Shown piece by piece: positions 721-26,985 of a stretch of DNA of 64,000 nucleotides. The stretch is from an uncultured Thermoplasmata archaeon. Its GTDB lineage: Archaea; Thermoplasmatota; Thermoplasmata; Halarchaeoplasmatales; Halarchaeoplasmataceae. A program made the translations under genes and the position numbers. The stretch lies in NCBI GenBank assembly GCA_964602715.1, contig CAZRSB010000003.1, forward strand, positions 5,783 through 69,782, given 5' to 3'. Each line of letters begins with the position of its first letter. Positions within the stretch are counted from its first letter, which is position 1. Below the pieces are notes generated by a model that was not told where the DNA came from, searched no databases, and saw nothing but the letters and a program-made list of their open reading frames with translations.

Positions 721-733
721 GGTTAAGGTATAG

Positions 734-3074: not shown

Positions 3075-3255
3075 ATTAATAATTCGACGGGTATTCTCTC
3101 CTGCATTTCGCGATCCTGCTACGGTCGATCATTCCGCTGTTCATTGCGATGGTGATGAAAGAGAAGAATATATGATGAAAAATTGATTACAACTGAGTCT
3201 AAACGATAATGTATCTCTAGATAATATAAAAAATAGTAATTAAATAAGAGGGTTT

Positions 3256-3746: not shown

Positions 3747-4505
3747 ATGATGCGCAAGAACACTATGCTGACCTTGGAGGAGAGCGTGACAGAAACGGCC
3801 AAAACCATTGGTATAAATCTCAGTCAAGTGGCCGAGAAGGCCATAAAAGAGAGGATTCAAGAGATACTAAGACCAAGGGGAGAGGGGGTTGTTCAGATCC
3901 CCCAAACGGAAAAGGTGGTGCTAAAGAACGTCGGACATTTCCAAGGTGAGAGGGAATTTGAGTTTTCGAGCGGCGTGAATATCATAGTCGGGCCTAACGC
4001 TTCAGGAAAAACTACCATAATCGATTCGTTGAGAGCTGCCTATGGAGATGAAAGGTCTCCGACGAAGAACCAGTTCATGGAGGAAGAAGATGAGAGCTGG
4101 GTACGTGTCGTCCCTGAAAACGGAGCAATAAGAAGGAACGTTGGAGATGAGATCTCGTTCCCGCAGGGAGATACTTCTGAAAGGCTCGATCTAGAGAGAT
4201 TCGAGGGCTTAACCGAGGACGTTAAAGAGCGGCTGAAGTCTAGTGAAACTGAGAGAGCCCTATCAGAGGGAGATAGAGTTCTCAAGGAGATCATCCTCCA
4301 GTCGATGGCCACGAGAGGTAACGAATGTTATCTTAGAGATGGGACGTTGGCGATGTTAGATACAGAGATGAAAGAGATGGTTTTGGATTTCCTATATGAA
4401 CAGGAATTTCAGGTCATACTCACTTACCCTGAGAGAGGGGAGGAAGATAGCGTGATAAGTTCAGAAGATCACAACTTGATAGAATTGGGAGAGAGGAGGT
4501 CCTAA
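3747..4505 (+). CDS. compact ABC/SMC-head-like ATPase with N-terminal RHH-like segment
   Basis: GGAGG RBS at 3738-3742 precedes ATG 3747; the track ORF starts at 3726. Motifs: RHH-like MLTLEESVTETAKTIGINLSQVAEKAIKERI; Walker A GPNASGKTT in an EFEFSSGVNIIVGPNASGKTTIIDSL context typical of SMC/RecF/AAA_21 N-termini; signature-like LSEGDR; Walker-B-like TLAMLDTE; H-loop-like ILTYPE. No coiled coil. Confidence 0.55.
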   Translation: MMRKNTMLTLEESVTETAKTIGINLSQVAEKAIKERIQEILRPRGEGVVQIPQTEKVVLKNVGHFQGEREFEFSSGVNIIVGPNASGKTTIIDSLRAAYGDERSPTKNQFMEEEDESWVRVVPENGAIRRNVGDEISFPQGDTSERLDLERFEGLTEDVKERLKSSETERALSEGDRVLKEIILQSMATRGNECYLRDGTLAMLDTEMKEMVLDFLYEQEFQVILTYPERGEEDSVISSEDHNLIELGERRS

Positions 4506-4602
4506 AATATGTCAAAATTCATTCGCCCCCTATTAGAGGGTTTTAATTGTGAGAAAAAGTATTACATCCCCCGAGAGTTGAAAAGGAGGTATTGATGATC
4601 CC

Positions 4603-5814: not shown

Positions 5815-6129
5815 AGATTCAAAAACGTGGAGAGGAAAGAGAGGCTTAGATGTTAGGGGGGATTTTACCTTCCATCCAAAGCATCAGAAAGTCGAGCCCT
5901 CCCTGATAGTGATCTCTGTATTTCCTCCAAACATTTACTTGATAAATGTTTGAAAGTAAACAATATAGAGATTCTGGATGAATACATTACGTTGGCGGAC
6001 AAGAGATCAACAGGAGGCTCAACATGGTTAATCAGAAATAGCCTATAATGTCGTTGAGTCAATAAAAATTCATTCCCCAAAATGTTATATTCTTTTCATC
6101 ATTTTTACTCGAAAAAGAAGGTGAGTGGA

Positions 6130-7080
6130 ATGAAAAAATTGGAAAAGTATCTGAGAACCGATACACACCAAATGAAATTAAGTGGCTATGCCTACGACTC
6201 GGTGGGAGAGTTGATAGAAAATAAAAATATTTCGAGAGGGATATACGAAGGTTGGAAAAAAACGGGGTTGATCTCTGAACCTGAAGATTTCAAAGAAGAG
6301 GATGTTGGAATAACAAAATTGGAGACCGAGATTGATTTTCTCGCCACTTTGTCCAACTCAGACTTGAGTTGGAAGAATATAAGTGAATTTCTTTCTGAAC
6401 TCTCTAAGCCTTACCATTATGAGATTACTGGCTTATTTTATGATATAGGTAATGATAGGTTCATAGTCAAAGAAAATCTCTTGGAGGAAGAGTTGAAAAA
6501 AACTCGTGTTAGAGAATTTGAGGAGATTAATTTTGAAGACTTTTTACGCAAAAAAGAAACGAATTATGAGGATTTAAAAAAGTTAGAAACAATTGGCTTC
6601 CTCACAGATTTGCCCTCGAAGGATACAATCTTATCACTAGATGAACACAAAGAGGTCGATTTTCTCTGTGATTTATTGGAGAGCGGTTTAACTTGGGATA
6701 AAGTGAACACTCTTCTTGATAGGCTTGAGAAACCATACCAATACGATTCTAATGAACTATTATATAAGATTGAAAATGGAGAGTTCCTCACTAAAGGTGA
6801 TGTAATAGTAAATGAAATTAAAGACCAAATTATTTCTGAGGAGTACCTAAAAGAAAGAATAATGGATGAGCATGAGACTGAGATTATAGAAAGCACACTA
6901 CATAGTCTTCAGGAGAATCTCCAAGATTCAGAATTAGATTTAGTAGAAGACCAGCTAACTGAGGTTGGGGAAAAAATTATCTTTAGATGTAGGGAAATTC
7001 TAAATGAAAATATAGAGGAGATCTACGAAGAAAGAACCAAGGAGTTTGAATTAAGAAAGGATAGAAAGAGAGGTTTTTAA
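6130..7080 (+). CDS. hypothetical protein with internal ~55-aa tandem duplication
   Basis: Track ORF starts at 6082. ATG 6130 (MKKLEKY) follows an AGGTGA RBS. Two repeats: DFLATLSNSDLSWKNISEFLSELSKPYHYEITGLFYDIGNDRF and DFLCDLLESGLTWDKVNTLLDRLEKPYQYDSNELLYKIENGEF. Confidence 0.55.
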   Translation: MKKLEKYLRTDTHQMKLSGYAYDSVGELIENKNISRGIYEGWKKTGLISEPEDFKEEDVGITKLETEIDFLATLSNSDLSWKNISEFLSELSKPYHYEITGLFYDIGNDRFIVKENLLEEELKKTRVREFEEINFEDFLRKKETNYEDLKKLETIGFLTDLPSKDTILSLDEHKEVDFLCDLLESGLTWDKVNTLLDRLEKPYQYDSNELLYKIENGEFLTKGDVIVNEIKDQIISEEYLKERIMDEHETEIIESTLHSLQENLQDSELDLVEDQLTEVGEKIIFRCREILNENIEEIYEERTKEFELRKDRKRGF

Positions 7081-7254
7081 GTCTCTCTAGTCTTATTTAA
7101 AGGGTCAGAGATAGAGAGAGATTAACTTTATGCTAACATTATATCCACTAATTAGGGATGTTGGGGCTTCTGATAATAAATTAAATACCGGAGATCTTTA
7201 AACCCTAGGTCCTCTAATCCAAGGTCATGGCTAAAGATCCTCTATCTCTGTTTT

Positions 7255-8076
7255 TTAAGAGGCTTTGTACCCTTGACAGTTATCGCAGTACCATCTTTCA
7301 AATTCTTCGATAAATCGTAGAGATTTACTACAGTCTGGACACGGCGGGGAGCCGGGTTTTGGATCAGGTGAGTTAGGCTCAGATGGAGTTCTACATCTCC
7401 GTGAATCTCTAGACTTTTTTGGATCGATACCAGTCTCTCCAGTTGGCGAGTTTTCAGGTGAGCTTTCCTCTTTTTTTTCTTCGGGCGCATGTTCCTTATC
7501 CTGGTCGCTCTGGTCGTTCACCTCGATCTCTTCTTCACTGCCTTTCTCTTCGTCTATCTCTTGGGAGTTTTCCTCATCGAGTCCATCTTCCTGGACATCT
7601 ACTTTTTCACTTTCCTCTCTGAGATCCCCTTCTTCACTTTCTTCAAGAGCCTCTTCTTCCTCTACATCCTGCTGTTCCTCGTCTTCTTCACCTGCATCAG
7701 ATTCATCTTTTTCGCTTTCTTTTGTCTCTTTGGATACCTCTTCATCTCTTTCTTCTTTAGTCGGGCCCTCGCCTGGTTGGAGCGTGCTCTCTTCGCTCTT
7801 CATTTTCTTCTCTACTTCATCTTCTGAGATCTGTTCTTCCGATTTCTCAGACTTGCTCTTATTGTTCTGGATCCGATCGATGATCTCTCTGCGATCCCTG
7901 TTTTTCCTTTTCAAGTCCCTATCATTTTTCCGGTGCCATTCCTTTCGCTCTTTCATCTCATCTCTATTTGGTGGTCTGTAAAGTAGCGGAGCGTCCTCCA
8001 CGGGGGCTAAAAAAGGTTTTCGAAGTTCTTTTTCTGAGAGGGAAAACCCCTCTTCTAGATCTTCTTCAGCATGCAT
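7255..8076 (-). CDS. highly acidic, disordered protein with C-terminal zinc ribbon
   Basis: 273 aa of E/D/K/S low complexity ending in CPDCSKSLRFIEEFERWYCDNCQGY. Confidence 0.55.
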   Translation of the reverse strand: MHAEEDLEEGFSLSEKELRKPFLAPVEDAPLLYRPPNRDEMKERKEWHRKNDRDLKRKNRDRREIIDRIQNNKSKSEKSEEQISEDEVEKKMKSEESTLQPGEGPTKEERDEEVSKETKESEKDESDAGEEDEEQQDVEEEEALEESEEGDLREESEKVDVQEDGLDEENSQEIDEEKGSEEEIEVNDQSDQDKEHAPEEKKEESSPENSPTGETGIDPKKSRDSRRCRTPSEPNSPDPKPGSPPCPDCSKSLRFIEEFERWYCDNCQGYKAS

Positions 8077-8195
8077 GCTATCAATAAGTACTAGTTCGGA
8101 TAAACTATATAAATGTTTTTAATTCTACATATCACTCCATAATTATTAGCCCCTAATATTTAGATAGCATATTAGGCTCTAATAATCTGCTAAAT

Positions 8196-8489
8196 TCATC
8201 CTTTCCAGAAGCAATCATCACAAAAAACGCACCTCTTTCCTTCTAAATCTATTTTATATCGCTCTTTACACTCTTCAAAACCTTCTTGTCGCCCCTCTTC
8301 ACGGGCTTCTTCTATCTCTTTTTTGAGATCTAGACTATCTTTGATGATCTCCTCCAGCCAATCTTTTTTGCTCATATCTACTTCCTGGAGGAGTTCCTCC
8401 AATTCCTCTTTCAGTTCTCGATCAACTCGGAAATTAATAATCGGATTTTGCTTCTCATATTTCTCCCTGGAAGGCGCTTTATCAGCCAT
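8196..8489 (-). CDS. ribbon-helix-helix (CopG-like) domain protein with C-terminal Cys cluster
   Basis: PIINFRVDRELKEELEELLQEVDMSKKDWLEEIIKDSL resembles the RHH strand-helix-helix. C-terminus has CVFCDDC. Confidence 0.5.
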   Translation of the reverse strand: MADKAPSREKYEKQNPIINFRVDRELKEELEELLQEVDMSKKDWLEEIIKDSLDLKKEIEEAREEGRQEGFEECKERYKIDLEGKRCVFCDDCFWKG

Positions 8490-8532
8490 TATAATTATAA
8501 CATCACCTGCTCTATATAGTTTTTTTGTTTTC

Positions 8533-8606
8533 TACATAGTTTACTATATGGTTTTCCATACAGTTTTCCATATGGTTTGCTGTATGGTTTTCCATATCGT
8601 TTGCTA
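8533..8606. repeat. about 6 degenerate tandem copies of a 12-bp unit (TATGGTTTTCCA / TACAGTTTTCCA / TATGGTTTGCTG / TATCGTTTGCTA)
   Basis: Read directly in sequence. Lies 45-120 bp upstream of the RHH gene start (8489). The 8323..8697 ORF across it is a repeat artefact. Confidence 0.6.
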
Positions 8607-9003
8607 TGTGCAAAGGGAGATTTTCTCTTATACTCGATCATCTCCTATAAATTCTCTGGATAGCGATTTTAGTCAAGGCGTAGTAGGGGTACACTAAAAG
8701 GTGCACTATTCCTCGGAAACCGCCGCATGCGGTATATTATACCCCTTCATTTCACCCCTGCCGGCCCCAGGGGGGATGAGGGGTCCCCAAGGGACGAGAG
8801 GAAAAGATGGAAGGAGGGAGCAGGGAAGACAGAAGAAAAGCCGGAGAGGAAAGAAGTAGGAGTAAGAAGAGAGGGGCGAGGGACCGGCGGAAGAGGATGA
8901 GATAGCAGGCGGAGATGAGAAAAAAGTATAGGTAGAAATTAAGAAAGTTTATATTTTAGACGAGCACTCTTTATATGTCAGACAGACTGGAGGCATTAAA
9001 AAT

Positions 9004-9678
9004 ATGCGAGAAAGCACGATGAAAAGATCATCTGTGAGGGAAGAATTTGATATGGTGTTCGAAGAAGAAAATCTAGAAAAAGCAAGAGAAAGTCTTCAGA
9101 GGAAGATAGACGAGCTCGAAGACAAAAAGAAATTGGGAGATGCTCACTACCTTCTAGGATACATTTGCCAACGAGATGAGGACTATGATAAAGCCTACGA
9201 GCATTTGAGAGAAGCGGAGAAGTTGAGAAGAACAGTCGATGATAAAGAAGGGCTGGTAGAGACTCTCTCCTTCCTAGGAACTGTTGAAAAAGAAAAAGGG
9301 AATGAAGAGAAAGGGTTAGAAAATTTAGCTGAAGCGGCAGGTCTAGAAAGGGAACTAGAAAACTTCGAAAGTGCAGGAACATTCTACGCTATGCTCGCTA
9401 ATGGACATGATGAATTGGGTAGAACTGATGAGGTCCTTCACTATCAGAACAAAGCGATAGAGATGATGGAAGAGTTAGATAAAAAGGGCGAAAGCACCTT
9501 GAATGTAGAGGCTATGATTTTCACCAAAAAAGGTGGAGAAGAACTTCGAGACATCCATGGAAAGCGTATAGAGGCGTTTAAAGAGGAATATGAAGGTGAA
9601 TCAGAGGTGTTAACAACGTTTGAAGCCTTCGACGAGATGGAAAACTCCTTGTCAGAGTTGAGGGAAGAACTAGACTGA
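9004..9678 (+). CDS. hypothetical protein with TPR-like helical repeats
   Basis: 224 aa. GGAGG RBS 9 nt upstream. Segments such as AHYLLGYICQRDEDYDKAYEHLREAEKL are TPR-like. Confidence 0.5.
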   Translation: MRESTMKRSSVREEFDMVFEEENLEKARESLQRKIDELEDKKKLGDAHYLLGYICQRDEDYDKAYEHLREAEKLRRTVDDKEGLVETLSFLGTVEKEKGNEEKGLENLAEAAGLERELENFESAGTFYAMLANGHDELGRTDEVLHYQNKAIEMMEELDKKGESTLNVEAMIFTKKGGEELRDIHGKRIEAFKEEYEGESEVLTTFEAFDEMENSLSELREELD

Positions 9679-9802
9679 TCTGCAACGTCTTAAAACCTTT
9701 TGAATCTTTAACCCACTAGGGCAATATAGAGGACCCTAGGGATACGACAAGTTAGAGAAAAAATAAGATTTTGAAATATATACTTTAGCCTGATTCATAA
9801 TT

Positions 9803-12058
9803 TCAACCGTAATCTTCAAAATTTCTACTTATATAGGGGGCCTGCTCTTTGGGCTTCAAAGGTTCAGTCCTATTTCCTCTTCTAACAAAGAATTTTCCCT
9901 TTCCTTCTCTTTCTATAAACGAGGGGGTATCTGCATGTTCAACTTCTATTAAGCACACTTCCTTACCATTTACGGTAAAGAAAGAAACCTCAATATAATC
10001 ATTGAATTTTTCTTCCATATAGGAAGAAACTAGATTGAGTAGATGCCGTTGGAAAGCTTCTCTTTTTTCTTCCTCTTTGAACGTATCATAATCTTCTTCT
10101 AGACCGTAAACTTCTCCATCATTTTTAACGCCGATTAATAAAGTCCCTCCTTCTTCTGAGTTCAAAAATCCATTTATAGCTTTCATCGATTGATATTCCA
10201 CATCTTTTGTTCTCATACCTCTATCTTTTATATCCGTACGAAGGGTGGATTTAAACTCTAAATTTTGACCTTCACCTTCTTCGATCAACAGTTGGACATT
10301 TGTATCTTGTGCCCTTGAATCGATAACATTGAAAGTTATCCCATCCAGCTCTTCTTTGAGAAGTTCTTCGAATATCTTTATCCTCTTCTCGATAAATTCA
10401 TCGAGATATTTATGGCCCAATTCATCATCCCGGCACCAGTCAAGTATGGCCTTGGGGATTAGATGGGTTTCTAACACCTCTTCAAATCCTTCTCCATCAT
10501 AATCTTTAAGATAGTCAATTGGATTCTTGTCACTGATCTCTAGATTTGTAATCTGGGGAATATAAGCTATGTTCATAAGGCTGTCTTCGTCCAATTCATT
10601 GTCACCAGGATAATCCTCTACAAATCCACGTGGAAAGATATGATGTAGGTTTGGCTTATCTATTAAATGATAATATACTTCACTTATCACTGATCTATCG
10701 TAGTGTTTCCAGTCTTTTGGATCCTGGTTCGATAAGAGGGACAAAATAGCTCTAGAAAATCTCCCTCTATAACTGTATGATGATTCTCTCAGATCATTCC
10801 TATCCAGAATGAAAGGTTCAAATTCAAATTCTTCTCCCTGTTTGGCTTTCTCTAACTCTTCTAAATGATCATATCGAAGATGTCTTGTGTGCTTCAGTTT
10901 CTCTTCATTGTGGAACGAATAATACCAGAAGTACTTTTTTAGTAAATCATAATCAGGATCATCGTTTTCGTAGAAATAAGATGAGATAGTTATGTAGAAA
11001 TATCTGTATGGGATAAGATTTGGACCTTTCAAATGAAGATGGTTTTCAAAGAAGTCAAAAGTATCCCTAAAGGCTTCTTTCGCTCCATCCCATACCTCTT
11101 CTATTTGTTTTGCTGTGATATTATTTAGATAGGTGTCAGTGATATTGTGGACACTTGCATCTTCTATGTTCTGTCTAATTATCATCGCTAACATCTGAAG
11201 GTATGTTTGATACCCTATTCCGGAAAACTCACCTGGTGTATTGTCTTTGAAATCATCTATCATCTCTCTCAGATAGAAACCGCCCTCTGGATGCCCTTCT
11301 TGCCTAAACGTTTTAGCTACCACTATGTCAAATATGTTGAGAGGTTCACCTTCCTGATTTACTCTCTCAAATATTTCACAGACCTCATTGGTCTCTATTC
11401 CCTTCAATTCAATAAATGGGATCCTGTAGTTATCCATCACATGCTTTATCTTCCTCAAATTTTCCCTGTAAGGATGTTCGTAAGAAGTATACCCTAGATT
11501 ATGTATATTCCTTTCAATCTCATTATAGTTCTCCTTTATATCTTTCAGTTTTACGATCAGTCCCTTTTTGTATCTTTTCATCTTTGGGATGTTCTGCTTA
11601 ATCTCTCCGCCTTTGTCGTCTATCTCACCCCAACATAAGAAGCGTTTTTTATACTTTGAATCTTCCTCGTCTTCTTCCTCCTCCACCGTGAGGTCAACGT
11701 ACATAGTGGGCTCAAAGTCTCTTCTCCACTCCCCTTTAGCCCCATATAGGGAGGTTAGCAGGGCTGTTGTCCTTTGCTGCCCATCCAATATATATTTGAA
11801 GTCTGATTCTCTCTCAGAATCGTCGATCTCGTGTCCCCCGATCTTCCTATGTTTCTGCAGTTTTACATCTGTCTTCCAGACCAATATGCTCCCAATCGGG
11901 TAAAATTTATAGATACTGTCCCACAACTTTTTCACATTGTTCTTTTCCCAAATAATTTCCCTCTGGAAAGTGGGAATCTGATATTTTTTGTTCTTCAAAT
12001 TTTCAAGATATGTCCCTATAGAATCATGAGTGGGTTTGATTCTATCTGCATCTTCCAT
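9803..12058 (-). CDS. GmrSD-like type IV restriction-type nuclease (DUF262 + DUF1524) fused to a C-terminal AlbA_2/Schlafen-like domain
   Basis: N-terminal DUF262 motifs (QREIIW, ILDGQQRTTAL). Central His-Me-finger/DUF1524-like HHIFPRGF...NIAYIPQITNLEISDKNP. C-terminal EFKSTL...AINGFLNSEEGGTLLIGVKNDGEVYGLEED resembles the AlbA_2 (PF04326) core. Confidence 0.65.
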   Translation of the reverse strand: MEDADRIKPTHDSIGTYLENLKNKKYQIPTFQREIIWEKNNVKKLWDSIYKFYPIGSILVWKTDVKLQKHRKIGGHEIDDSERESDFKYILDGQQRTTALLTSLYGAKGEWRRDFEPTMYVDLTVEEEEDEEDSKYKKRFLCWGEIDDKGGEIKQNIPKMKRYKKGLIVKLKDIKENYNEIERNIHNLGYTSYEHPYRENLRKIKHVMDNYRIPFIELKGIETNEVCEIFERVNQEGEPLNIFDIVVAKTFRQEGHPEGGFYLREMIDDFKDNTPGEFSGIGYQTYLQMLAMIIRQNIEDASVHNITDTYLNNITAKQIEEVWDGAKEAFRDTFDFFENHLHLKGPNLIPYRYFYITISSYFYENDDPDYDLLKKYFWYYSFHNEEKLKHTRHLRYDHLEELEKAKQGEEFEFEPFILDRNDLRESSYSYRGRFSRAILSLLSNQDPKDWKHYDRSVISEVYYHLIDKPNLHHIFPRGFVEDYPGDNELDEDSLMNIAYIPQITNLEISDKNPIDYLKDYDGEGFEEVLETHLIPKAILDWCRDDELGHKYLDEFIEKRIKIFEELLKEELDGITFNVIDSRAQDTNVQLLIEEGEGQNLEFKSTLRTDIKDRGMRTKDVEYQSMKAINGFLNSEEGGTLLIGVKNDGEVYGLEEDYDTFKEEEKREAFQRHLLNLVSSYMEEKFNDYIEVSFFTVNGKEVCLIEVEHADTPSFIEREGKGKFFVRRGNRTEPLKPKEQAPYISRNFEDYG

Positions 12059-12490
12059 GGTATAATCACCTATTTTTGTAAAGCTAAACGATTAACAACA
12101 TAGAATATTTAAAATTAATCGCCGTAATTAATTTGATAAAAGTGTAGAAAACTACTCATTAAAGTTTCATCATCTATTCCGTTATTCTCACTTGCTACTT
12201 TTCTTCAGGCAGGAAACTTCATAAAATCTGTGTGATTTAAGAAGAAGCTAGAAATATGAATCATTCTAATATATACTTATATGAGTGTATATTCCTCACA
12301 CTCTACCGGATTTATGAAGGTGATCTTCACTTCTTTATATAGTATCACTTAAGTTTAACAGATGAAACTCGAAAATCGACGGAGAAACAGGAATTTTTAA
12401 CGATTTATCCTGATTGATTTTATTTTTTTCAAGAGGAAGAAAGAGTATTGAGGAAGAAAAGGTATGAACGGACAAAATCCCTAACGCACG

Positions 12491-12523
12491 CACGCATGCG
12501 CATTACGTAACATGTCCGGACAT
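12491..12523. repeat. three adjacent perfect palindromes (CGCATGCG, TTACGTAA, ATGTCCGGACAT)
   Basis: Read directly. Lies in the 515-bp intergenic gap between the GmrSD-like gene and the Rep-like gene. Confidence 0.55.
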
Positions 12524-12573
12524 ATCACATATAATAATACTATACGCGATCTGTCCGAAGTCCTATCTAGAGA

Positions 12574-15500
12574 TCAGTATCTACTTTCTATACCGTCTGG
12601 TGGGCGTGGTCCTTCCAACGGACTCTGATAGGGGCTTTCCCCTTCCAACTCTGTATCTCCTCCTGGGTTTATCCCGTTCAGGCCTTGATTGATCCATTTA
12701 TAGGCCACTCCTTCCTTTTTTTTGACAAGTGTATCAGTTTTCTCCTCTAGTTCATTCAGGCATCGTCGCACCTGTCTCTTTGACAAGTCGATCTTCTTTG
12801 CAATCGTCTTAGTGGTAAACTCTTCTCTTTTTTTCGCCTCTGAAAAGACTTTCTTCATCCCATCACTCCAAATATTTATGACCCCTGGTTGTGTCTCGTG
12901 AGGGACCCAATCAGGTAAAGTGTTCGTTTCGACATACACAACCGCTCCTTGTCCGTCTCTCCCGAAGCGCATTACTGCTTGAAGAGTGGCATTATGAGTC
13001 ATATGCCGATAGATTTTATTCCCAAAATCCCCATAGTCAGTATCCTCCCCTCTCCCTTCTCTTTCTACTCCCTCGTTTTGGTAGGCCCCCCATTTTTTGA
13101 TGTAATCGTCTCCGCAGTGATTCGATCCGATAACCACACCCAATCGCTTTTTTTTAAGCTTATTTGATCCTTTCAGATTACCGTAGTGAGTGTGATCATC
13201 GACGAATGTGAGCAATCCTTCTTCTTGGTATTGGTCCTTTGCTTTTTTCGTGGTGATCATAGAGGGCCTCTGATCATATAGTTCCGTTAGCTTTTGAAGA
13301 AGGAGCCGATCCGACTCGATGTTGACGTAATTCCCTGAGGAGTAGGGTTTCATGTGCTCAGTCGTGCGGATAAAATGATGATTCAATCCTTCCTTGAGGT
13401 ATTTCTTTCTTTCACTGTCATCCAATACCTGACGATGTTCTAATCTTGCACCACCAAGAGAAATTTCCCACATCTCTTTAATGGGAGTTCCATCTAATGC
13501 AATGATTTGCCTGCAGTAGTACAGATTCGGGGGTTTCATGACGTGAATTCTGTTAGTCGCTCGGTTATGAAGAACGGTGAGATGCTTATTTTTATCAAAA
13601 TAGCGCTTACGCTCGTATCCGTTGACCGTATTATCTTCATCTCCCACCATTTCAAGGAGGGCATGAATCACTGTAGGGGTAAGTGAATGTGTTTCTTCTG
13701 AGTCAAGGACCCATGTTGGGGTTTTCTCCTTCATTCCATCGAGATATTCGAGTGCTTTTTCCCGCCTTTTTTCATCATCCCTGTTTTCCAAAAGATCGGT
13801 AATGTTTTGGAAAGGGATCCTATCTTCGTCCTGAAGGTAATCCGATATGGCTTTTTTTAATTTTTCCGCTGAAAATTTTTCCTCAAAGGCATCCTCGGGA
13901 AATTCATCGAATACTACTGTTCTCTTTTTCGTAACTTTGGGAAGATGAGCACATAGATAATGCCCTATCAGAACATCGTAATATTCCGGATCGAAGTTCC
14001 AAGCCATGCTGTACGGACATGCCCCATCCTTTTGACACGGAGGAGAGCAGTATTTATGGATCTGTTGTGGGGTAAGCCCTCGTTCATACCAATCTTTTAC
14101 CTTATCTTTCCACTCTTCACCGTGTTCCCCTGTTGCTGTTGGACAACTCTGAAAAAAAGAAGGTAGCCGTTTATATGAGAGGTTCTCATCCTCGCACCAC
14201 TCTTCTATCTGTTTATACTGCTCTTTATGTCCCCGATCGGTAAGAACCGTTAGGGGTGTGTGTGTTTCTTTAGCGGCTTTGATTATACCGTTGCTCTTCC
14301 CTAACGAGGGTAGTGCATCGATGAGGATGTTTTCTTGGCTTTCTAACGCATCTACAAGGCAGTCTAACGTTTTTTTCCGTGCTTTTTCCACATGCCTTCT
14401 CCGTGGTCTGTCATCTATGAGGATGGGTTCAACAGGTAAATCACTTACATCATCAGGCTTGTTCACTGAAACTAATAGATCTGGTTTTGGAGATCCTTTT
14501 TCGAGGATGGGAATATCATATCCTCCCTCACTAAGTCCCTCTACGGCTTTCCAGAATGTCCTCCCGTCGAGTTTTTCAGCAGGAGTTGATATGAGCCCCA
14601 CTCCCAGCGCATACGCCTTGAGAGGACCACCGCCCTTATCTACTTTGTTATCTATGAACCGATTTTCTCCTTCAGGGATTGCACAAGATTTTCCGCTTTC
14701 ACTCTCCCGCCAAGAGGGGTTGAAGGTGATTTCGGATGATCTGTTCGAGGTGTCAAACTCGTCGGAAGCGTACTTTTTGACGATCTCTTTTACATCGATC
14801 CTATTAACAGCATCTACTACATCACACCAGTTATCGGTAGTTTCTAAATCAGCCAGGTTAATGTTCTTTTTACGACGCTCTTCCCGTCTCTCTTTCCGAT
14901 CTTCGGTAATTTTTTTTCGCCGTTTTTCTTTTTCCTTCTCCTCTTCAACCCAAGTCTTAAGGGCAACTTTCCAGTCCCCTTCGTAGAAATCTGGAAAGAG
15001 ATCTGAAATCATTTTGTCGAGTGGTCTATGGTTTTCGGGAACTGTGGTAAAATCTACACACCATTCTTTGACCTTTGAAATCAATTCGCTGTCTACGTCT
15101 TCCTTGCGAATCAACTTGTACTCCACGGTGGCAGTATCTATTGGATGGACCACGCCATCTATTTCTTTGTGTAAAGAGAGAGGGCCTTTATATTGCCGAT
15201 TCTTATTGTTAATCGCATCCATTTTACAGATTTCTTCTGCTCCATCAACGCTTTCAAGAACTTCAATCCTCTTTTTTTTAATCCAGTCATTCATGCGGTC
15301 CGTCAATTCATCGAATATTTTTCCCTTGCTGTTCAAATCGCTAATAGGTGCAGTGACGCCTGGAGCAGTGAATATGTAAACTCCTCCAACAGAATCCAAT
15401 AGAAAGACGTGATCCTCTCCTACCAACCTCTCGAATTCTTTTATCATCTTCTCTATCACTTTTGAGAATATTTTTTTCTTCTCAGAAGGAAGGGAGCGCT

Positions 15501-15903
15501 CTTTATGGGCATCCTTTAGGTCAATATCAACGAATAAAGCAGTGGCATAGATTTCATCATAATTAGGCAGAGGTGATTCCCCTCCCTCAAAATATGTGCC
15601 CCCATCGGTACTTTTGCATAATTTCTCTTTCAGAACATCTTTTTTCTGGTAGTTGAGCACGGCGTAATAGTGTCTGTCGATCTGATCTGCAAGTTCTCCA
15701 GCATCACCTCCCAAACTGTAAGGGCGGCCCCGATACTGATATCCTTCTTCGTAGCTTTCGATTTTCTTAGCCGGTCTTTTGTGGTACCACCCATAGTGAT
15801 CACTGATGCCAAAAGTAGTAGTCTCTTCCATCCCTCCTAGAGCTTTGAAAATCGGGATCAATTTTTGGTAATACTTCCTGTGCTCACTCCTTTTCCGTGT
15901 CAT
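12574..15903 (-). CDS. replication initiator-like protein: AEP primase-polymerase-like N-domain, P-loop NTPase, C-terminal wHTH
   Basis: AEP motif I-like ALFVDIDLKD and motif II-like DSVGGVYIF. Walker A-like LPSLGKSNG and Walker B VVFDEFPE. C-terminal helix-turn-helix KTIAKKIDLSKRQVRRCLNELEEK. 1109 aa. Confidence 0.55.
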   Translation of the reverse strand: MTRKRSEHRKYYQKLIPIFKALGGMEETTTFGISDHYGWYHKRPAKKIESYEEGYQYRGRPYSLGGDAGELADQIDRHYYAVLNYQKKDVLKEKLCKSTDGGTYFEGGESPLPNYDEIYATALFVDIDLKDAHKERSLPSEKKKIFSKVIEKMIKEFERLVGEDHVFLLDSVGGVYIFTAPGVTAPISDLNSKGKIFDELTDRMNDWIKKKRIEVLESVDGAEEICKMDAINNKNRQYKGPLSLHKEIDGVVHPIDTATVEYKLIRKEDVDSELISKVKEWCVDFTTVPENHRPLDKMISDLFPDFYEGDWKVALKTWVEEEKEKEKRRKKITEDRKERREERRKKNINLADLETTDNWCDVVDAVNRIDVKEIVKKYASDEFDTSNRSSEITFNPSWRESESGKSCAIPEGENRFIDNKVDKGGGPLKAYALGVGLISTPAEKLDGRTFWKAVEGLSEGGYDIPILEKGSPKPDLLVSVNKPDDVSDLPVEPILIDDRPRRRHVEKARKKTLDCLVDALESQENILIDALPSLGKSNGIIKAAKETHTPLTVLTDRGHKEQYKQIEEWCEDENLSYKRLPSFFQSCPTATGEHGEEWKDKVKDWYERGLTPQQIHKYCSPPCQKDGACPYSMAWNFDPEYYDVLIGHYLCAHLPKVTKKRTVVFDEFPEDAFEEKFSAEKLKKAISDYLQDEDRIPFQNITDLLENRDDEKRREKALEYLDGMKEKTPTWVLDSEETHSLTPTVIHALLEMVGDEDNTVNGYERKRYFDKNKHLTVLHNRATNRIHVMKPPNLYYCRQIIALDGTPIKEMWEISLGGARLEHRQVLDDSERKKYLKEGLNHHFIRTTEHMKPYSSGNYVNIESDRLLLQKLTELYDQRPSMITTKKAKDQYQEEGLLTFVDDHTHYGNLKGSNKLKKKRLGVVIGSNHCGDDYIKKWGAYQNEGVEREGRGEDTDYGDFGNKIYRHMTHNATLQAVMRFGRDGQGAVVYVETNTLPDWVPHETQPGVINIWSDGMKKVFSEAKKREEFTTKTIAKKIDLSKRQVRRCLNELEEKTDTLVKKKEGVAYKWINQGLNGINPGGDTELEGESPYQSPLEGPRPPDGIESRY

Positions 15904-16246
15904 TTTCAGGTTGTTCGATACTGATCCTTTCTCTCGCCAGGAGGCAGTCCTGGACGTGCCTACATCTCTTACAATCCCCAGTAATCCGATCTGATATGTT
16001 TCTAGTCCTCAATATTTCCAACTCTCTTTCCATCTCTTTGATAGCGTGGACCGCCAACCTTGCCTGATCGAAGGTGAATCCTAGCCCTTCTAGCATATCG
16101 ATCAGGATCTTGAAATCAAGAAGTTCAGATGGTCTGGGATGCTGACATTTATCAGGGAGGGGAAGTTTCTGGACGGCTTCCTTTCCAGCCTGTTCTATCT
16201 TTTCTTCCTCTTCAGATGTTAAGGCGTAGTAATTCTTCTCTGTCAT
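15884..16246 (-). CDS. hypothetical protein (element-borne), overlaps Rep start by 20 nt
   Basis: 120-aa ORF co-directional with and operonic to the Rep gene. Contains CKRCRHVQDC. Confidence 0.5.
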   Translation of the reverse strand: MTEKNYYALTSEEEEKIEQAGKEAVQKLPLPDKCQHPRPSELLDFKILIDMLEGLGFTFDQARLAVHAIKEMERELEILRTRNISDRITGDCKRCRHVQDCLLARERISIEQPENDTEKE

Positions 16247-16248
16247 AT

Positions 16249-16431
16249 TTACTCATCTCCACTGTTGGCACTTTCTTTCTTCTTTTCTTCCTCTATATCT
16301 TCTCCAGCCTGCTTTAGAATCGCTAGTGCCATCGCCCGAACTACAGTATCTCCGTGTTTAGCCAGTCGATGGAGTTTGTCTTTGTTCTTTCTGACGTATT
16401 GTTCAACATCATTCATCCTCATCACCATCAT
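16249..16431 (-). CDS. hypothetical small protein
   Basis: 60-aa ORF immediately upstream of 15884..16246 on the same strand. Confidence 0.35.
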   Translation of the reverse strand: MMVMRMNDVEQYVRKNKDKLHRLAKHGDTVVRAMALAILKQAGEDIEEEKKKESANSGDE

Positions 16432-16573
16432 TCATTTCCTTTTTACTTAAGAGAAGAAATATTCCTTCTCTCACATAACTACTCAGAGAATTACCTGTCT
16501 TTTGAGCCCGTTTTTCCAACTTTTCATAGGTAGAAGGTTTCAATCTGACAACGATCCGCCTTTTCTTAGACAT
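16409..16573 (-). CDS. ribbon-helix-helix (CopG/Arc-like) protein, 54 aa, not in ORF track
   Basis: Manual translation MSKKRRIVVRLKPSTYEKLEKRAQKTGNSLSSYVREGIFLLLSKKEMNDGDEDE. Basic beta-strand RIVVRL followed by two helices. Overlaps 16249..16431 by 23 nt. Confidence 0.5.
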   Translation of the reverse strand: MSKKRRIVVRLKPSTYEKLEKRAQKTGNSLSSYVREGIFLLLSKKEMNDGDEDE

Positions 16574-16681
16574 CGTATCGGTACACCTTTATAGTCACAT
16601 TCATCGTAATCTTTTTCACAGATGGCCGATTTTCAAGATTTGAAAATAGGTGCTTAAAGTGAAATTCGAGGTTTTCAAAAG

Positions 16682-17749
16682 ATGAAAAAAGAAGAAAATG
16701 AAGAGAAAATTTTAGACGTTTTAAGTTTCGGAAAAAACCCAACCACGCGTTCTTGGGAAATTTTGATGATAATATCTAATCAAGAAAAGATCGGATATAG
16801 TCTCGATACATTAATGGATAAACTTGAGAAATCCGGTAAGGATTACTCTAAGCAAAATGTGAGGAGAGACATAAAAAAGAGACTTAAAAAAGGTGATTTA
16901 ATTGAGGTAAAAAAGGAGAAGAAACCACAATATGGAACACCTCACAATAGGTACAAAGTCACATCTAGGGGGAAAATAGTTGCAGAGAAATTAAAAGAAA
17001 TCAAAGAGATATTGACCAATTTTGAAAAATATGAGGTAGAAAAAGATCATGAAAAATGGATCGAAAAATGGGTGGAAGAATTTACCAGCATGATAGATAA
17101 AAATGAATCGGTTGAAGATTCCGAATTAATTTCTAAATTGAAGGACTTAAGGACCTATATTAGGGATAATGACGCCTATATTGAAGTTTTTGAAAATAAA
17201 AGATTGTTAGATATTTTATGGGATTATATGGAAATCAAATCCCCTGCATACGAAGCAACATACACATTTAGGGATAAAAAACAGTATGTAGACTATCAGC
17301 TTTCTGCGTTCGTTATATATCTAGATATTCTTAAAGAAGGATTTGATCTAAACTTACCTTCTTTCCCAAAACAGGAAATGAATCGGATATGGGAAATTAT
17401 ATTTCACTTCTATATCAATTCTGAAAATTATTCTTACATAACCGATACTAAGACTAAAAAGAAAATTAAAAAGAGAGTGAACAATATTGTATCCACAATA
17501 TTTACAGATTATTATGGGGATGGAAGATCAATTGAGGAAAAATACCTTTTAGAACTTCTCGACGTTTTGTTTGATTCCTCCGGTAATATAGAAGATTCAA
17601 ATCTTCGAGATATTCTTGTTAATAAAATAAAAAACAGAAAGGATATGGAGTTCCTAAAGGAGCAGATCGAAGAGGAAATAAAAGAACAAGATGATTCAGA
17701 GTGGTTAAGAGAAATTCTAAGAGATGGGGGATACATCGAACTCATATGA
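16682..17749 (+). CDS. hypothetical protein with N-terminal winged-helix-like segment
   Basis: 355 aa, divergently transcribed from the RHH gene. N-terminus ILDVLSFGKNPTTRSWEILMIISNQEKIGYSLDTLMDKL is wHTH-like. Confidence 0.5.
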   Translation: MKKEENEEKILDVLSFGKNPTTRSWEILMIISNQEKIGYSLDTLMDKLEKSGKDYSKQNVRRDIKKRLKKGDLIEVKKEKKPQYGTPHNRYKVTSRGKIVAEKLKEIKEILTNFEKYEVEKDHEKWIEKWVEEFTSMIDKNESVEDSELISKLKDLRTYIRDNDAYIEVFENKRLLDILWDYMEIKSPAYEATYTFRDKKQYVDYQLSAFVIYLDILKEGFDLNLPSFPKQEMNRIWEIIFHFYINSENYSYITDTKTKKKIKKRVNNIVSTIFTDYYGDGRSIEEKYLLELLDVLFDSSGNIEDSNLRDILVNKIKNRKDMEFLKEQIEEEIKEQDDSEWLREILRDGGYIELI

Positions 17750-17761
17750 TATTGGTGTATT

Positions 17762-18997
17762 CTAATCAACTCTATCTTTCAATACTTTCTTGAACTCTTC
17801 CATTATCTCTTCGTTTTCGTTCATCAACTTTACCATGTCCATGAAATCCTGCATATCATCTAACACTTCTGGCTTTTCTTTTGCAAGTTGGGTAAAATCT
17901 TTGCTTACATCTTCTTTATCCTCTTCTATCTCTTGAGCGGCTTCCACACTTAGCGCTTGTCCACATCGCTGACAAAATTTAGCCTCGGGGGAGTTCTTTT
18001 CTTCACATCTAGGACAGTCTATAGGTGATAATTCGGCGTTGTCATCCTCTTCTTCCTCCTTTATCCCATGAATCTTGTCATATGCGTCATCTATATCTCT
18101 TCCGCTGAGATGCACATATTTAGAAGGTTGATCACTACCTTGGACCCATCCAAACCATTCACACATCATCGCCTCTGTGAATCTGGGGGCTAAAAATGTT
18201 GCTCTACTGTGTCGAAAATGATGTGGATTTACAGGCTTATTGATTTCTGCCTTTTCCGCTGTAGTGTTTAATGCCTTGAGTAAAGTTCTATATTCGGCTT
18301 TCTTTCCGTTATTTTTTGTACCAATATTGACCCATAACGGAGCACTATCCTCATCCCTTTTTGGATGTGAATTTAACCACTCTCTCACATCTGGAATACT
18401 GCTTACTAACGGGAGCCTTCTCGGGCCTGTCTTTCCGTTTATCACAATTTTCAGTCCGTGTTCACGATCCTCAAAATCCCCAATGGTCAGATCAATAATC
18501 TCACCGATTCTAGCGCCTGTTTCCCAGAGAAGGCTGATTAAACACCGATCTCTCGGGTTGCTAGCGTGATTTATCAACTTACTCACATCATCTTCAGTCA
18601 GCATTTTTTTCGGTAACTTACCGTTATTCTTTTTCTCTGTAGTATTGATCCAATCTACTTTATCTGGATATACCCCATCATTCAACCACTTATAGACTAC
18701 TTTTAGAACTATCTTATACTGTCTTTTAGTGGCATCAGCAATATCTCTAGAGTTTACCCAGGCTACAATCTCTTCTATTTGTTCTCTTTCAGCGCCTTTC
18801 AAGTCAAAATCGACATGTTCTAAGATTTTTTTCAAATGTGAGAGAAGTTTTTGTAAGTGAGCATCTGAATAGTCCTGTAGCATAAGATGCCTATGATATT
18901 CTTCTAAGAGTCCTTTGTTTCCTTCAGTTACTTCGTCATTCTCTTTTACCTTTTCGAGGATTTGCTCATGCCGCCCCTCATAGTCTAGGAGAGTCAT
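17762..18997 (-). CDS. int: tyrosine recombinase/integrase with C-terminal zinc ribbon
   Basis: SAM-like N-domain. Catalytic residues in TGARIGEI, HHFRHSRAT and the downstream Y region. C-terminal CPRCEEKNSPEAKFCQRCG. Confidence 0.8.
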   Translation of the reverse strand: MTLLDYEGRHEQILEKVKENDEVTEGNKGLLEEYHRHLMLQDYSDAHLQKLLSHLKKILEHVDFDLKGAEREQIEEIVAWVNSRDIADATKRQYKIVLKVVYKWLNDGVYPDKVDWINTTEKKNNGKLPKKMLTEDDVSKLINHASNPRDRCLISLLWETGARIGEIIDLTIGDFEDREHGLKIVINGKTGPRRLPLVSSIPDVREWLNSHPKRDEDSAPLWVNIGTKNNGKKAEYRTLLKALNTTAEKAEINKPVNPHHFRHSRATFLAPRFTEAMMCEWFGWVQGSDQPSKYVHLSGRDIDDAYDKIHGIKEEEEDDNAELSPIDCPRCEEKNSPEAKFCQRCGQALSVEAAQEIEEDKEDVSKDFTQLAKEKPEVLDDMQDFMDMVKLMNENEEIMEEFKKVLKDRVD

Positions 18998-19049
18998 ACT
19001 AATAACAATATACCTATTCTATAAAAGTGTTTTGAACTGTAAAGTAAAT

Positions 19050-19175
19050 GGACGCTGGGTCCACTAACAAATCTATGATTTTTAGTGGGCATAGAGAATG
19101 CTCTAACATTCTCTTGGGTCCACTAATCTCTGATTAGTGGTAAATCAGAATCTTTGATTCTGACGGGTCCATTAT
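19050..19175. repeat. cluster of direct and inverted repeats (GGGTCCACTAA x2, GGGTCCA x1, TTAGTGG x2, palindromes AGAATG-N6-CATTCT and TCAGAATC-N3-GATTCTGA): candidate att/ori
   Basis: Read directly. Starts 53 bp from the integrase start codon. Confidence 0.5.
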
Positions 19176-19548
19176 CATTACACGTCATATTAGTCCAAAT
19201 AAAATCCTTTATCAATAATCATACAAGCATATGTTAAATTCAGCATTCTAGAATAATATTCATTCTACTCAAAATTTTTGTCTGACTAGTAAAGATTACA
19301 TGTAATAGTAATAATCTGGATCTATTTCCACATTTTTTGCTTTAGACTCGGCTAAGATACCTTCTACTGAATAAGGCATTCTTATAGTGACGGTTCCTTT
19401 TTGCAAGAATGAGAAGAGTTCCAGTCAAGTTTTTTAAATGACATGATTTCTTTACAAATATATCTAATAGTGGAGGGATTTTTGCACACATTTAGAGTGA
19501 AAAATACTTTATTTCTTAAAATTATTAGTGAAATAGGGTGGTAATGCG

Positions 19549-20061
19549 ATGAAAGAAAAATCAAGATTGGGAAAGGAAAAAAAATCTAAACCTAAAAGAG
19601 GAAAAGATAGAAAAGATAAGGCGGATCATATGAAGAAGAAAGCTAAATATGACAAAAAAATTGCAAAACAGGAAAAGAAAATAGGCAAATATGAGGGTAA
19701 AATAGAAAAATATCGAAATAAAATAGAAGATTTCAAAGATAAAATAAATAAAGCAAAGGCAAAACAAAGAGAAGCACAGCAGCTTTCAGGGAGAGCACAC
19801 AAGAAAACCCAATCGAAAAAAGAGAGAGGTGACAGGGAAAATAAGGCTAAACATATGAAAGAGAAGGCAAAATATGATAAGACTATCGCAAAGCAGGAAA
19901 AGAAAATCGGTAAATATGAAGAGAAAATAAGTAAGTATAAAAATAAGATTAAAAAATATAAAAAGAAAAAGAAAGATGCTTTGGGAAAAAAGAAGGAACT
20001 GAAAAAAAAATCTAATGAAGAAAAGAAATCTATAAGAAAAGACTCTAATAAAGAAAAGTAA
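19549..20061 (+). CDS. Lys-rich protein with a ~75-aa internal duplication
   Basis: Repeats of HMKKKAKYDKKIAKQEKKIGKYEGKIEKYRNKI. GGTGG RBS. Confidence 0.5.
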   Translation: MKEKSRLGKEKKSKPKRGKDRKDKADHMKKKAKYDKKIAKQEKKIGKYEGKIEKYRNKIEDFKDKINKAKAKQREAQQLSGRAHKKTQSKKERGDRENKAKHMKEKAKYDKTIAKQEKKIGKYEEKISKYKNKIKKYKKKKKDALGKKKELKKKSNEEKKSIRKDSNKEK

Positions 20062-20407
20062 TAATTTTTTGAGAGAAAATCATTCTGTTCATTTTGATAA
20101 TAAATATGCTTGATTCAAAACGATCTATTCGCAGTAGTAAAAGATTAATAGGTGGAGAATAGATATGAAAAGTAAAAAGGGTTCAGAAACATAGAATTGA
20201 TACCTAATAGACATCATGAATCCTAAATAGGAAGATATCTCAGGAATTATGATTTAAACCAATAATTTGCTTGATGATCTGTACTGGTAATGACAATCAA
20301 AAAGTAAATGAATACGGATCTTATTGCATTTTATACGGCTTAGATATATGGGTGACTAAAACTCTCCCTCCCTTGATACTTCCTTTACTAATGAAATAAG
20401 GTTAGAT

Positions 20408-22449: not shown

Positions 22450-22525
22450 TGGTGCGGGTTCGGGGATTTGAACCCCGGTTATAGCCTTGGCAAGGCTAGG
22501 TGATACCAAACTACACCAAACCCGC
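22450..22525 (-). tRNA. tRNA-Gly(GCC): tRNA-Gly (anticodon GCC), CCA encoded
   Basis: Reverse complement folds as GCGGGTT/AACCCGC acceptor, anticodon loop TTGCCAA, T-arm CGGGG-TTCAAAT-CCCCG. 76 nt. Confidence 0.85.
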
Positions 22526-26650: not shown

Positions 26651-26652
26651 AT

Positions 26653-26963
26653 ACTAGGTCACCGAGGTTGGTGCTCAGCTCACCACTGAGGACCCCAAAT
26701 CCATCCTCGACCTCGCTACCCCACGAGCATCGGTAGTCCAGGTATCGGCTGCTCCCTTCCGGGCCTGGCCTGGTAAACCTGGCTAAGACAAAGGAGAACA
26801 ACCCTCCGGTTGTTCTCCAAAGCACCTCCGATCCCGTGGGACGAAGTCTCATCGTCTGGATCTGGCTCAGCGGTGGGCTGATTACACCGTCCCCGGTGGT
26901 CACCCCCGCGTATCGGCGATTTCGGTGTATAAGGGCACGCCGACCGCCCCGGTTAGACCTAGC
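26653..26963 (-). ncRNA. signal recognition particle RNA (7S RNA)
   Basis: Minus strand carries CCAGGCCAGGCCCGGAAGGGAGCAGCC, matching the conserved SRP RNA helix 8 / domain IV motif. Terminal helix CTAGGTC...GACCTAG. About 310 nt and GC-rich in an AT-rich genome. Confidence 0.75.
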
Positions 26964-26985
26964 AAAAGTTAGTTAGACCAACCTC

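Follow-up and report, generated by a model that had tools for sequence, protein, structure and literature searches.

A probable attachment region built of tRNA-Ala-end cores and palindromes beside an archaeal tyrosine integrase gene

In the 64,000-nt stretch of Thermoplasmata DNA analysed here (the window), a region beside the start of a gene for a tyrosine integrase, positions 19050-19175, is crowded with direct and inverted repeats, and the question this locus raises is what such an array does at the edge of an integrase gene. The first-pass annotation had offered attachment (att) sites, integrase arm-type sites or a replication origin. Comparison with the loci of related integrases and with tRNA genes makes it probable, to a good degree of confidence, that the region serves an integrative element as its att region and that the integrase of this element has the 3′ end of a tRNA-Ala gene as its target. 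Whether the several cores of the array are alternative recombination points is, on the same comparison, about evenly balanced. The window itself is archaeal, as indicated by an archaeal signal recognition particle (SRP) RNA at 26652-26964, and it also holds a tRNA-Gly gene at 22450-22525.

The repeat array and the end of tRNA-Ala

The array is made up of the following parts, with the cores being putative sites of integrase action.

19053-19063, + strand: core O1, CGCTGGGTCCA, the promoter-proximal candidate att core, 13 nt from the GTTCAAAAC motif of the integrase promoter region
19060-19089, + strand: palindrome A1, with perfect 7-bp arms CCACTAA / TTAGTGG, extended to 13 bp with one bulged C
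19093-19114, + strand: palindrome B1, AGAGAATG-N6-CATTCTCT
19115-19122, + strand: core copy O2, TGGGTCCA, 8 nt of the tRNA-Ala end
19120-19140, + strand: palindrome A2, CCACTAATC-TCT-GATTAGTGG, opening with the CCA of core O2
19145-19163, + strand: palindrome B2, TCAGAATC-TTT-GATTCTGA
19164-19171, + strand: distal core copy O3, CGGGTCCA, at the array end, with TTATC... following in place of CTAA...
19033-19053 and 19167-19187, no strand: imperfect 21-nt inverted repeat, 76% complementary, which brackets the whole array and is of uncertain significance

On the + strand, which corresponds to the tRNA sense, the order is integrase promoter, a 13-nt spacer, O1, A1, B1, O2, A2, B2 and O3. The array can be described as two complete units of core, palindrome A and palindrome B, of 59 and 49 nt, and a terminal core, with all cores in the same orientation and the spacers between them (42-51 nt) being without genes or open reading frames (ORFs). 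Beyond O3 lies non-repetitive, AT-rich DNA. The individual repeats listed in the first-pass annotation were all recovered, namely the direct repeat TGGGTCCACTAA at 19056-19067 and 19115-19126 (+ strand), a further GGGTCCA at 19165-19171, and two copies of TTAGTGG at 19082-19088 and 19134-19140. The last two pair with the CCACTAA of the boxes to give the hairpin-type palindromes A1 and A2, and the 5′ arm of A1 opens with the terminal CCA of O1. The palindrome described as of AGAATG-N6-CATTCT type is B1, and the second, with an N3 loop, is B2. The distance given to the integrase is also right, the start of its ORF (17762-18997, - strand) being 53 nt from 19050.

The density of these repeats, which had been called typical of integrase arm-binding sites or an origin, is beyond that expected by chance. 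Within 19050-19175, 69 of the 126 nt belong to 7-mers with an inverted partner inside the region, the maximum for the 64-kb window, which is reached by 4 of 6388 sliding windows (starts 19051 and 19061 are among those listed). In first-order Markov simulations (n = 5000), the inverted-repeat value was reached by two sequences and the combined direct and inverted value by one. Perfect hairpins with stems of 6 or more account for 0.37 of the array bases, against 0.033 ± 0.047 in the remainder of the window, an excess of about tenfold. As a single strand the region is predicted to fold into four hairpins with z-scores of -8.3 (DNA) and -8.9 (RNA), none of 200 shuffled sequences folding as well. 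The bracketing 21-nt inverted repeat closes this multi-hairpin fold, and no counterpart to it was found in the relatives.

The identity of the repeated box is given by its match to tRNA. In archaea other than the host, tRNA-Ala genes have a 3′ end that core O1, CGCTGGGTCCA, matches exactly (11/11). The 11 nt comprise the three closing nucleotides of the T-stem, then the 3′ strand of the acceptor, in which nucleotide 70 is U, and finally A73. Here TGGGTCC is the acceptor 3′ strand including U70, and the A which follows is the discriminator. The G3:U70 pair is characteristic of tRNA-Ala. The GGGTCCA box is thus the tRNA-Ala acceptor 3′ strand, and the match extends over 8 nt in O2 and 7 nt in O3. 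A target tRNA ending in ...CGCTGGGTCCA had been predicted beforehand and was then met by accident in a relative's locus (L012; loci of relatives are numbered in this way throughout), where tRNA-Ala(UGC) ends in GCGGGTTCAAATCCCGCTGGGTCCA; the tRNA-Ala(UGC) of L125 is almost identical. As the box is a copy of the tRNA-Ala end, the target of the window integrase is read as tRNA-Ala.

The integrase and its promoter-proximal box in relatives

The gene next to the array and its predicted promoter region are as follows.

17762-18997, - strand: tyrosine integrase gene, 411 aa, with a XerA-like core-binding and catalytic body and a C-terminal zinc-ribbon extension of about 105 aa
19019-19039, - strand: predicted integrase promoter region, with a TATA box TTTTATA (complement of 19020-19026) and the family-conserved motif CAGTTCAAAAC (19029-19039)

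The ORF has a match to the Pfam Phage_integrase domain (1.4e-18), its zinc ribbon lies at residues 328-349, and in a full-length alignment with 27 homologs the catalytic R, K, H-x-x-R, H/W and Y columns are invariant. It has more than 1600 relatives, the best 120 of which are 44-79% identical over nearly the full length and come from the Archaeoglobi (including the complete genome of Ferroglobus placidus), Thermoplasmatota, Halobacteria, Methanonatronarchaeia-like lineages, Hadarchaeota, Aenigmatarchaeota and others. Loci of the family were additionally found in genomes of Bathyarchaeia and Nanoarchaeota. Against solved structures, the family profile is best matched by Pyrococcus abyssi XerA (profile positions 29-305, E-value 9e-22), with a surplus of about 28 residues before the aligned part, the extension being C-terminal. 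By this profile the family is a two-domain XerA-like recombinase with a C-terminal extension and without an N-terminal arm-binding domain. The nearest viral integrases, at 33-35% identity, are those of the Archaeoglobus and Geoglobus pleolipovirus proviruses.

For comparison of the gene surroundings, 80 genomic loci were obtained by an alignment-based scan of GTDB genomes, as a scan with the single protein as query gave no matches, and several contigs were added by exact protein look-up. No neighbouring gene of the integrase is conserved across the relatives compared. The gene downstream of the window integrase (355 aa, convergent) was considered as a conserved partner and rejected, being not homologous to the neighbour in L002. 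What is conserved lies upstream of the gene. The motif at 19029-19039, which on the + strand reads GTTTTGAACTG, and the TATA box are present in nearly all loci fetched, and a block (G/A)GTTCAAAAC-N-TTTATA is found 20-30 nt before the ATG in L001, L002/L006, L004, L007, L008 and L089. This conservation suggests that 19019-19039 is the integrase promoter. With the TATA box of the window only 22 nt from the ATG, the integrase mRNA would be leaderless or have a very short leader.

A GC-rich box of variable sequence is present 10-14 nt beyond the GTTCAAAAC motif in nearly all fetched loci, and in ten of these a tRNA gene ends exactly at this box, abutting the integrase promoter. The haloarchaeal loci L027, L036, L040 and L044 are informative, as they have a tRNA-Thr(CGU) gene 3.4-7.5 kb downstream of the integrase gene on the opposite strand, the 3′ end of which (core CCCTCCACCGGCT) is repeated as its reverse complement 66 nt upstream of the integrase gene. 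The match is 12-15 nt long, with one mismatch in L027 and L040, the core is 12-13 nt from GGGTTCAAAAC, and an inverted partner of the motif, AAGGGTTCAAATCC, flanks the core on the tRNA side. Judged by these repeats, the tRNA-Thr end and the upstream box are a classical attL/attR pair. Likewise, in ThalV2, an annotated Archaeoglobus pleolipovirus provirus with an integrase 34% identical to that of the window, the start of the provirus falls at such a box, 63 nt before the integrase gene. The haloarchaeal direct repeats and the ThalV2 border together identify the box as the att core, in which the T-stem and acceptor 3′ strand of the targeted tRNA are repeated. Core O1 of the window has the same position relative to the motif as the cores of these elements.

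The att-site suggestion of the first-pass annotation therefore stands in its main point: the array lies directly against the promoter of the integrase gene, and the box repeated in it is a tRNA 3′-end core, as in the haloarchaeal relatives and ThalV2. In the proposed mechanism the integrase would exchange strands within a core of 7-13 nt, of which GGGTCCA is the shared part, and, by binding at O1 at 13 nt from the promoter motif, it probably also autoregulates its own gene.

As a separate observation, in L036 and L044 inverted T-arm-like motifs (GTTTTGAACCC ... GGGTTCAAATCC) stand to either side of the att core, at a distance of 10-12 nt. The integrase promoter is overlapped by one of the two, and extra inverted tRNA fragments are found farther out (L036 14380-14425).

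Arrays of the same grammar and the use of their cores

Arrays with the same grammar as that of the window are found upstream of other integrase genes of the family. L004 has five boxes of the (T/C)GTCCG(C/T) type with four pairs of A and B palindromes, L010 has a 185-nt unit and four boxes, these of GGGAGCA type, L001 has two tRNA-Ala cores 104 nt apart (the integrase-proximal copy being 11 nt and the other the full 13 nt), L012 has a single unit upstream of its own integrase gene with yet another tRNA-end core, and L093 also has an array. In all of these types the 5′ arm of palindrome A opens with the last 2-3 nt of the core of that locus, giving CCA.../...TGG, CCGCTA.../...TAGCGG or GCA.../...TGC according to the core, so that palindrome A covaries with the target. 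AGAAT...ATTCT palindromes are found at the place equivalent to B in L004, L010, L012, L125, L150 and L212. In L010 (Thermoplasmata integrase, 54% identity), the 185-nt unit is repeated at least three times in positions 1-660, with 136-nt exact copies, each unit having a tRNA-end box and several palindromes, and the contig starts inside the array.

These features bear on the possibility that the region is one of regulatory or accessory binding, with the boxes as arm-type sites of the integrase (for example for its C-terminal zinc ribbon) and the palindromes as operators of a dimeric RHH or HTH accessory or directionality factor that bends the DNA and controls the integrase promoter. The direct repeats, 50-59 nt apart, lie by the promoter in one orientation, AGAAT...ATTCT is a recurring half-site of most B palindromes across loci, a small RHH-like ORF is present in the island on the integrase side, and the zinc-ribbon extension is conserved in the family, all of which would suit such a role. 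The arm-type sites of the first-pass annotation, taken in the lambda sense, nevertheless do not hold up, as the repeats are copies of the core with no distinct arm sequence, and the integrase profile has no lambda-like N-terminal arm-binding domain. In addition, no neighbouring gene is conserved across the relatives, and the palindromes are perfect over 6-13 bp, yet differ in sequence and loop length between units, a combination that fits selection for pairing better and favours structure over a single operator. We consider this explanation unlikely. In the att-region reading, the palindromes, which always contain the last bases of the core, would probably be hairpin or cruciform elements or sites for accessory proteins, and would help to assemble or orient the recombination complex.

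Arrays of this kind also follow genuine tRNA-Ala genes. These were found by a pattern scan of JGI metagenomes, the matches of which were mostly due to chance; L107, L169, L180 and L202 were rejected on inspection, and only L125, L150 and L212 were retained as true relatives. In L125 the array starts at the very end of the tRNA-Ala(UGC) gene, in L212 a tRNA-Ala(CGC) gene is followed by three units, in L150 the contig begins inside a core of the array, and in L012 there are about six cores after the tRNA-Ala gene. No integrase homolog was found at these array loci. Between unit 1 of the window (core, A1 and B1) and units of L012, L125, L150 and L212 the identity is 80-90%. A2 with its core matches 24 of 25 bases directly 3′ of the tRNA-Ala(UGC) gene in L125, and B2 with the next core matches 25 of 25-26 bases in the arrays of L125, L150 and L212. 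B2 is also present upstream of the L012 integrase gene beside a different tRNA-end core (17/17). Synteny is seen between L012 and L125 upstream of tRNA-Ala, where their proteins are only 50-63% identical, and the array units of the two stand in a different order.

A further unit of 90-104 nt (seg1), with an inverted partial copy of the tRNA-Ala T-arm (GGGATTTGAAAA), was noted at L012 5007-5096, L001 1-115, L002 1-60 and L150 1-110. It is flanked by two cores in L012, where both are the full 13-nt CCCGCTGGGTCCA, in L001 and in L150, the contig of which starts inside the first, and it resembles a minimal integrated remnant.

The position of these arrays directly after tRNA genes, where read-through transcripts would reach, raises the possibility that the array is a structured non-coding RNA or a trailer of the tRNA. 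Its transcription would run in the sense of the tRNA (+ strand, divergent from the integrase gene), and the hairpins would act as RNA. The fold of the window array is very strong (z = -8.9), and the tRNA-sense strand folds more stably in five of six arrays, consistent with G-U pairs, in a comparison that does not control for base composition. However, Rfam offers no family for the array: in a search of the window with Rfam 15 only the SRP RNA and tRNA-Gly, both outside the array, pass the gathering score, and the best match within the array at a relaxed E-value has E = 0.5 and 19 bits against a cutoff of 100. Palindrome A would moreover compete with the tRNA acceptor stem for C71-A73, neither a terminator nor a separate promoter was identified, and the link to the integrase and to the tRNA end is fully explained at the level of DNA. 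A role as RNA is thus very unlikely.

Which core of an array marks the element border is a matter of closer weighing. In one alternative, a classical single-core site, O1 alone would be the attR core, and A1 to O3 would be host DNA formerly just downstream of tRNA-Ala (B′). This displaced flank would already have consisted of stacked att scars from earlier events, or have been a 'landing pad' of the host, and would not belong to the present element. Both the border annotated for ThalV2 and the direct repeats of the haloarchaeal elements put the junction at the box nearest the promoter, the long 11-nt tRNA match is found in O1 only, and units of the same types stand right behind genuine tRNA-Ala genes where no integrase is in reach. 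What follows the first core in L001 and L006 is moreover the same sequence (seg1) that follows tRNA-Ala in L012, as is predicted for P-O-B′ against B-O-B′. Set against this is the finding that units in L012 and L125, the proteins of which are 50-63% identical, are nonetheless 80-90% identical to those of the window and differently ordered, that B2 also follows a different tRNA-end core beside the L012 integrase gene, and that a purely classical cycle leaves no scars, so that the origin of the array would be left unexplained.

A further point against it comes from L092, L093 and L094. These carry an identical integrase (P0013) and have two, three and two boxes respectively, the extra box of L093 being set off by a 95-nt unit. 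Outside the outermost box the host sequences of L092 and L093 share 68-71% identity; from that box inward the figure is 98% over a block of 2.0 kb comprising the unit, the promoter, the integrase gene and two small ORFs. The outermost box of all three loci is a hybrid on its outer half and marks the switch of identity. As the 98% identity begins at the outermost box, with host flanks at about 70%, the unit lies on the mobile side in this clade, with the crossover at the distal core. The single-core explanation for the window is accordingly one that we take seriously, while leaning away from it.

It was also observed that the cargo beside the 2.0-kb module of L092 and L094 (HerA/NurA/DUF7662/metallophosphatase) is unrelated to that of L093, so that the integration module, consisting of the identical integrase and two small ORFs, swaps cargo between these loci.

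An att region with several usable cores would be the simplest way to account for all of these findings. Recombination could then take place through alternative cores, and the units would be divided, some ending up in attL, by the tRNA, and others in attR, by the integrase gene. If attP is written as P-O-(A-B-O)n, use of the proximal O would leave the units by the tRNA, as in L012, L125 and L212, and use of the distal O would leave them by the integrase gene, as in L092-L094 and possibly in the window. Where different cores serve for entry and exit, units would be added or removed, and arrays would gain or lose units or leave scars across cycles of integration and excision. The junction of the window may therefore be at O1, with the array as displaced tRNA flank, or at O3, with the array carried by the element; O3 is a candidate element-chromosome junction by analogy only. 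The contigs L001, L002, L003, L005, L088, L125 and L150 end at or within arrays, for which structural heterogeneity may be the cause, with low coverage as the alternative. L088, a contig of a different sample (SRR9330141), shows 100% identity with the window rightwards from its start at 19142, between A2 and B2, a position that fits neither junction model.

The variable island, the missing end and known systems

At position 19000 the GC content falls from 0.40 to 0.30. On the integrase side lies a variable island of about 27 kb (window 1-19000 and L099 1-10000), which extends from a PCNA gene to the integrase gene and is rich in defence-type genes, including the following.

1977-3074, strand not given: DUF4238 gene
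3726-4505, strand not given: gene for an AAA/CcdA protein
9803-12058, strand not given: GmrSD gene

The island also holds TPR proteins, and its L099 part has a MmeI-like methyltransferase-endonuclease and a PLD nuclease. A 97-aa ORF (8196-8489, - strand) has upstream of it, at 8527-8607, about seven non-coding tandem copies of a 12-nt unit (GTTTTCCATATG-like, also with a 36-nt period), which look like iterons or an operator. Between this ORF and a TPR gene there is a non-coding tract of about 200 nt (8740-8940) that is strongly purine-rich (G/A) on the + strand. The 2.8 copies of a 102-nt repeat at 5284-5567 lie inside a 403-aa TPR gene and are ordinary TPR units. To the right of the array, a 170-aa ORF (19549-20061) has no Pfam match and consists mostly of 18-21-nt tandem repeats (19645-19746, 19897-19969 and 20003-20062).

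The content of the island also bears on the replication origin proposed in the first-pass annotation, in which the repeats would be the iterons of the integrated element with an AT-rich flank. The repeats do adjoin an AT-rich non-coding stretch of 370 nt, and in one relative, L004, an Orc1/Cdc6 gene lies two genes downstream of the integrase gene. No Orc1/Cdc6 or Rep domain was found among the island proteins scanned against Pfam, however, and the arrays occur with unrelated cargo and after tRNA-Ala genes with no element genes nearby, the repeat itself being a tRNA end. No resemblance was noticed between the repeat and the consensus of the origin recognition box (ORB), for which no scan was made. 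An origin is the least probable of the functions weighed here, and the proposal is best set aside.

The first-pass annotation had also proposed looking for the core at the other element end and in empty sites of related genomes. The second core at the tRNA is indeed present in the haloarchaeal relatives L027, L036, L040 and L044, and no such copy was found for the window. This and several other results weigh against the att region with multiple cores. Neither a second core (GGGTCCA on the + strand) nor a tRNA-Ala gene was found in 27 kb on the integrase side, and the search of window 1-17762 and a further 8 kb to the left in L099 gave no tRNA of any kind. No empty site was identified through homologs of the flanking ABC ATPase, the best of which is 47% identical, with no close relative of the host in the databases. 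The tRNA-Ala match refers to other archaea, the host's own tRNA-Ala not having been seen, and the inner boxes O2 and O3 match only 7-8 nt of the tRNA, which may be too short for recombination. The haloarchaeal elements and ThalV2 manage with a single promoter-proximal core, hairpin arrays being sparse there, and it is the L092-L094 clade alone that gives the multi-core model direct support. As no second core was found in the 27 kb, the element's far end is unproven, and the element may be a relic.

One candidate for this other end was inspected and rejected. The one-mismatch copy GGGTACACTAA at 8687 is of a kind expected by chance about 0.66 times, has no tRNA or palindromes beside it, and contigs from three other samples run straight through it. 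TGGGTTCA at 1802 was also inspected and dismissed. IMG/VR gave one distant integrase locus and no un-integrated relative, and the array has no DNA match in plasmid or phage collections.

Site-specific integration at tRNA genes is the main entry route of archaeal viruses, plasmids and defence islands, and very few archaeal att sites have been dissected. The present integrase family, 45-60% identical across Archaeoglobi, Thermoplasmatota, Halobacteria, Hadarchaeota, Bathyarchaeia and DPANN, appears to carry a compact and recognisable att grammar. This could serve as a sequence signature for element borders and integration hot spots in metagenomes, where assemblies also break, and it makes testable the idea that several usable cores per att region let cycles leave countable scars. 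It also raises the question of how a recombinase acts at the asymmetric extreme 3′ end of a tRNA gene; here the covariation of the palindromes with the core suggests that the answer is structural. Should the palindromes be dispensable and only O1 be used, the locus would be an ordinary attR site with decorative debris.

Going further, core, palindrome A and palindrome B could together form a dedicated, exchangeable recombination module of this pan-archaeal integrase family. It would have several functional cores, with units shuffled, added and removed between tRNA loci and elements, and be a gene-less analogue of integron arrays that records past cycles, the palindromes being folded DNA (cruciforms or single-strand hairpins) that position the recombinase at the tRNA end, where the gene offers no dyad symmetry. 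This wider proposal is tentative and rather unlikely to hold in full.

With regard to known systems, the classical tRNA-end att sites of archaea with non-suicidal integrases of pNOB8/XerA type, such as those of ThalV2 and the haloarchaeal elements, share with the window an intact integrase gene beside a tRNA-end core of 11-14 nt, which is located 10-13 nt from the integrase promoter and at the edge of a variable island. Lengths of 8-14 bp have been reported for archaeal att cores (PMC8371274). The window differs in that its core is present three times, each with two palindromes in fixed grammar, and in that the partner core was not found.

The SNJ2-type integrases of haloarchaeal pleolipoviruses have a 13-14-bp core at the extreme tRNA 3′ end with conserved flanking arms; their att site is at the 3′ end of the integrase gene, which is co-transcribed with Orf2 and Orf3, and the family is reported to be restricted to Halobacteria (PMC5861418). 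An archaeal tyrosine integrase and a core at a tRNA 3′ end are shared with the window. An SNJ2-type module was rejected here, as the window core is upstream of the integrase promoter and the downstream gene is convergent and not conserved; SNJ2 was not among the phage matches listed for the window integrase.

Tandem accretion of elements at one tRNA gene, which results in arrays of att direct repeats, is known in bacteria and archaea (PMC6563490, PMC7253208). Several core copies in the same orientation at one locus, degenerating with distance, are common to such arrays and to the window. In the window, however, the spacers are of 42-51 nt and gene-free, and a few palindromic unit types recur at 80-90% identity in other genomes; the array is not random debris of decayed elements. 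No description of a regular core-palindrome array was found in the open-access literature, in which short tRNA-end cores and tandem integrations in archaea are described.

Finally, there is a likeness to sites that are recombined as folded DNA, namely the attC arrays of integrons and the attP hairpin of CTX-phi that is used by XerCD. By gene layout and structure profile an integron itself does not fit, as the units of 49-59 nt are contiguous with no ORFs between them, and the integrase profile is best on XerA and matches the integron integrase IntI4 only weakly (positions 117-207, 91 positions, E-value 1.4e-09). The window differs from the folded-DNA systems in having no gene cassettes between its sites and in carrying a tRNA-end core in each unit. 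It has in common with them an array of imperfect palindromes beside, and read away from, a tyrosine recombinase gene, a pairing that is kept while the sequence varies, and a bulged base in one arm (A1, and also in L004), and this resemblance is no more than a lead.

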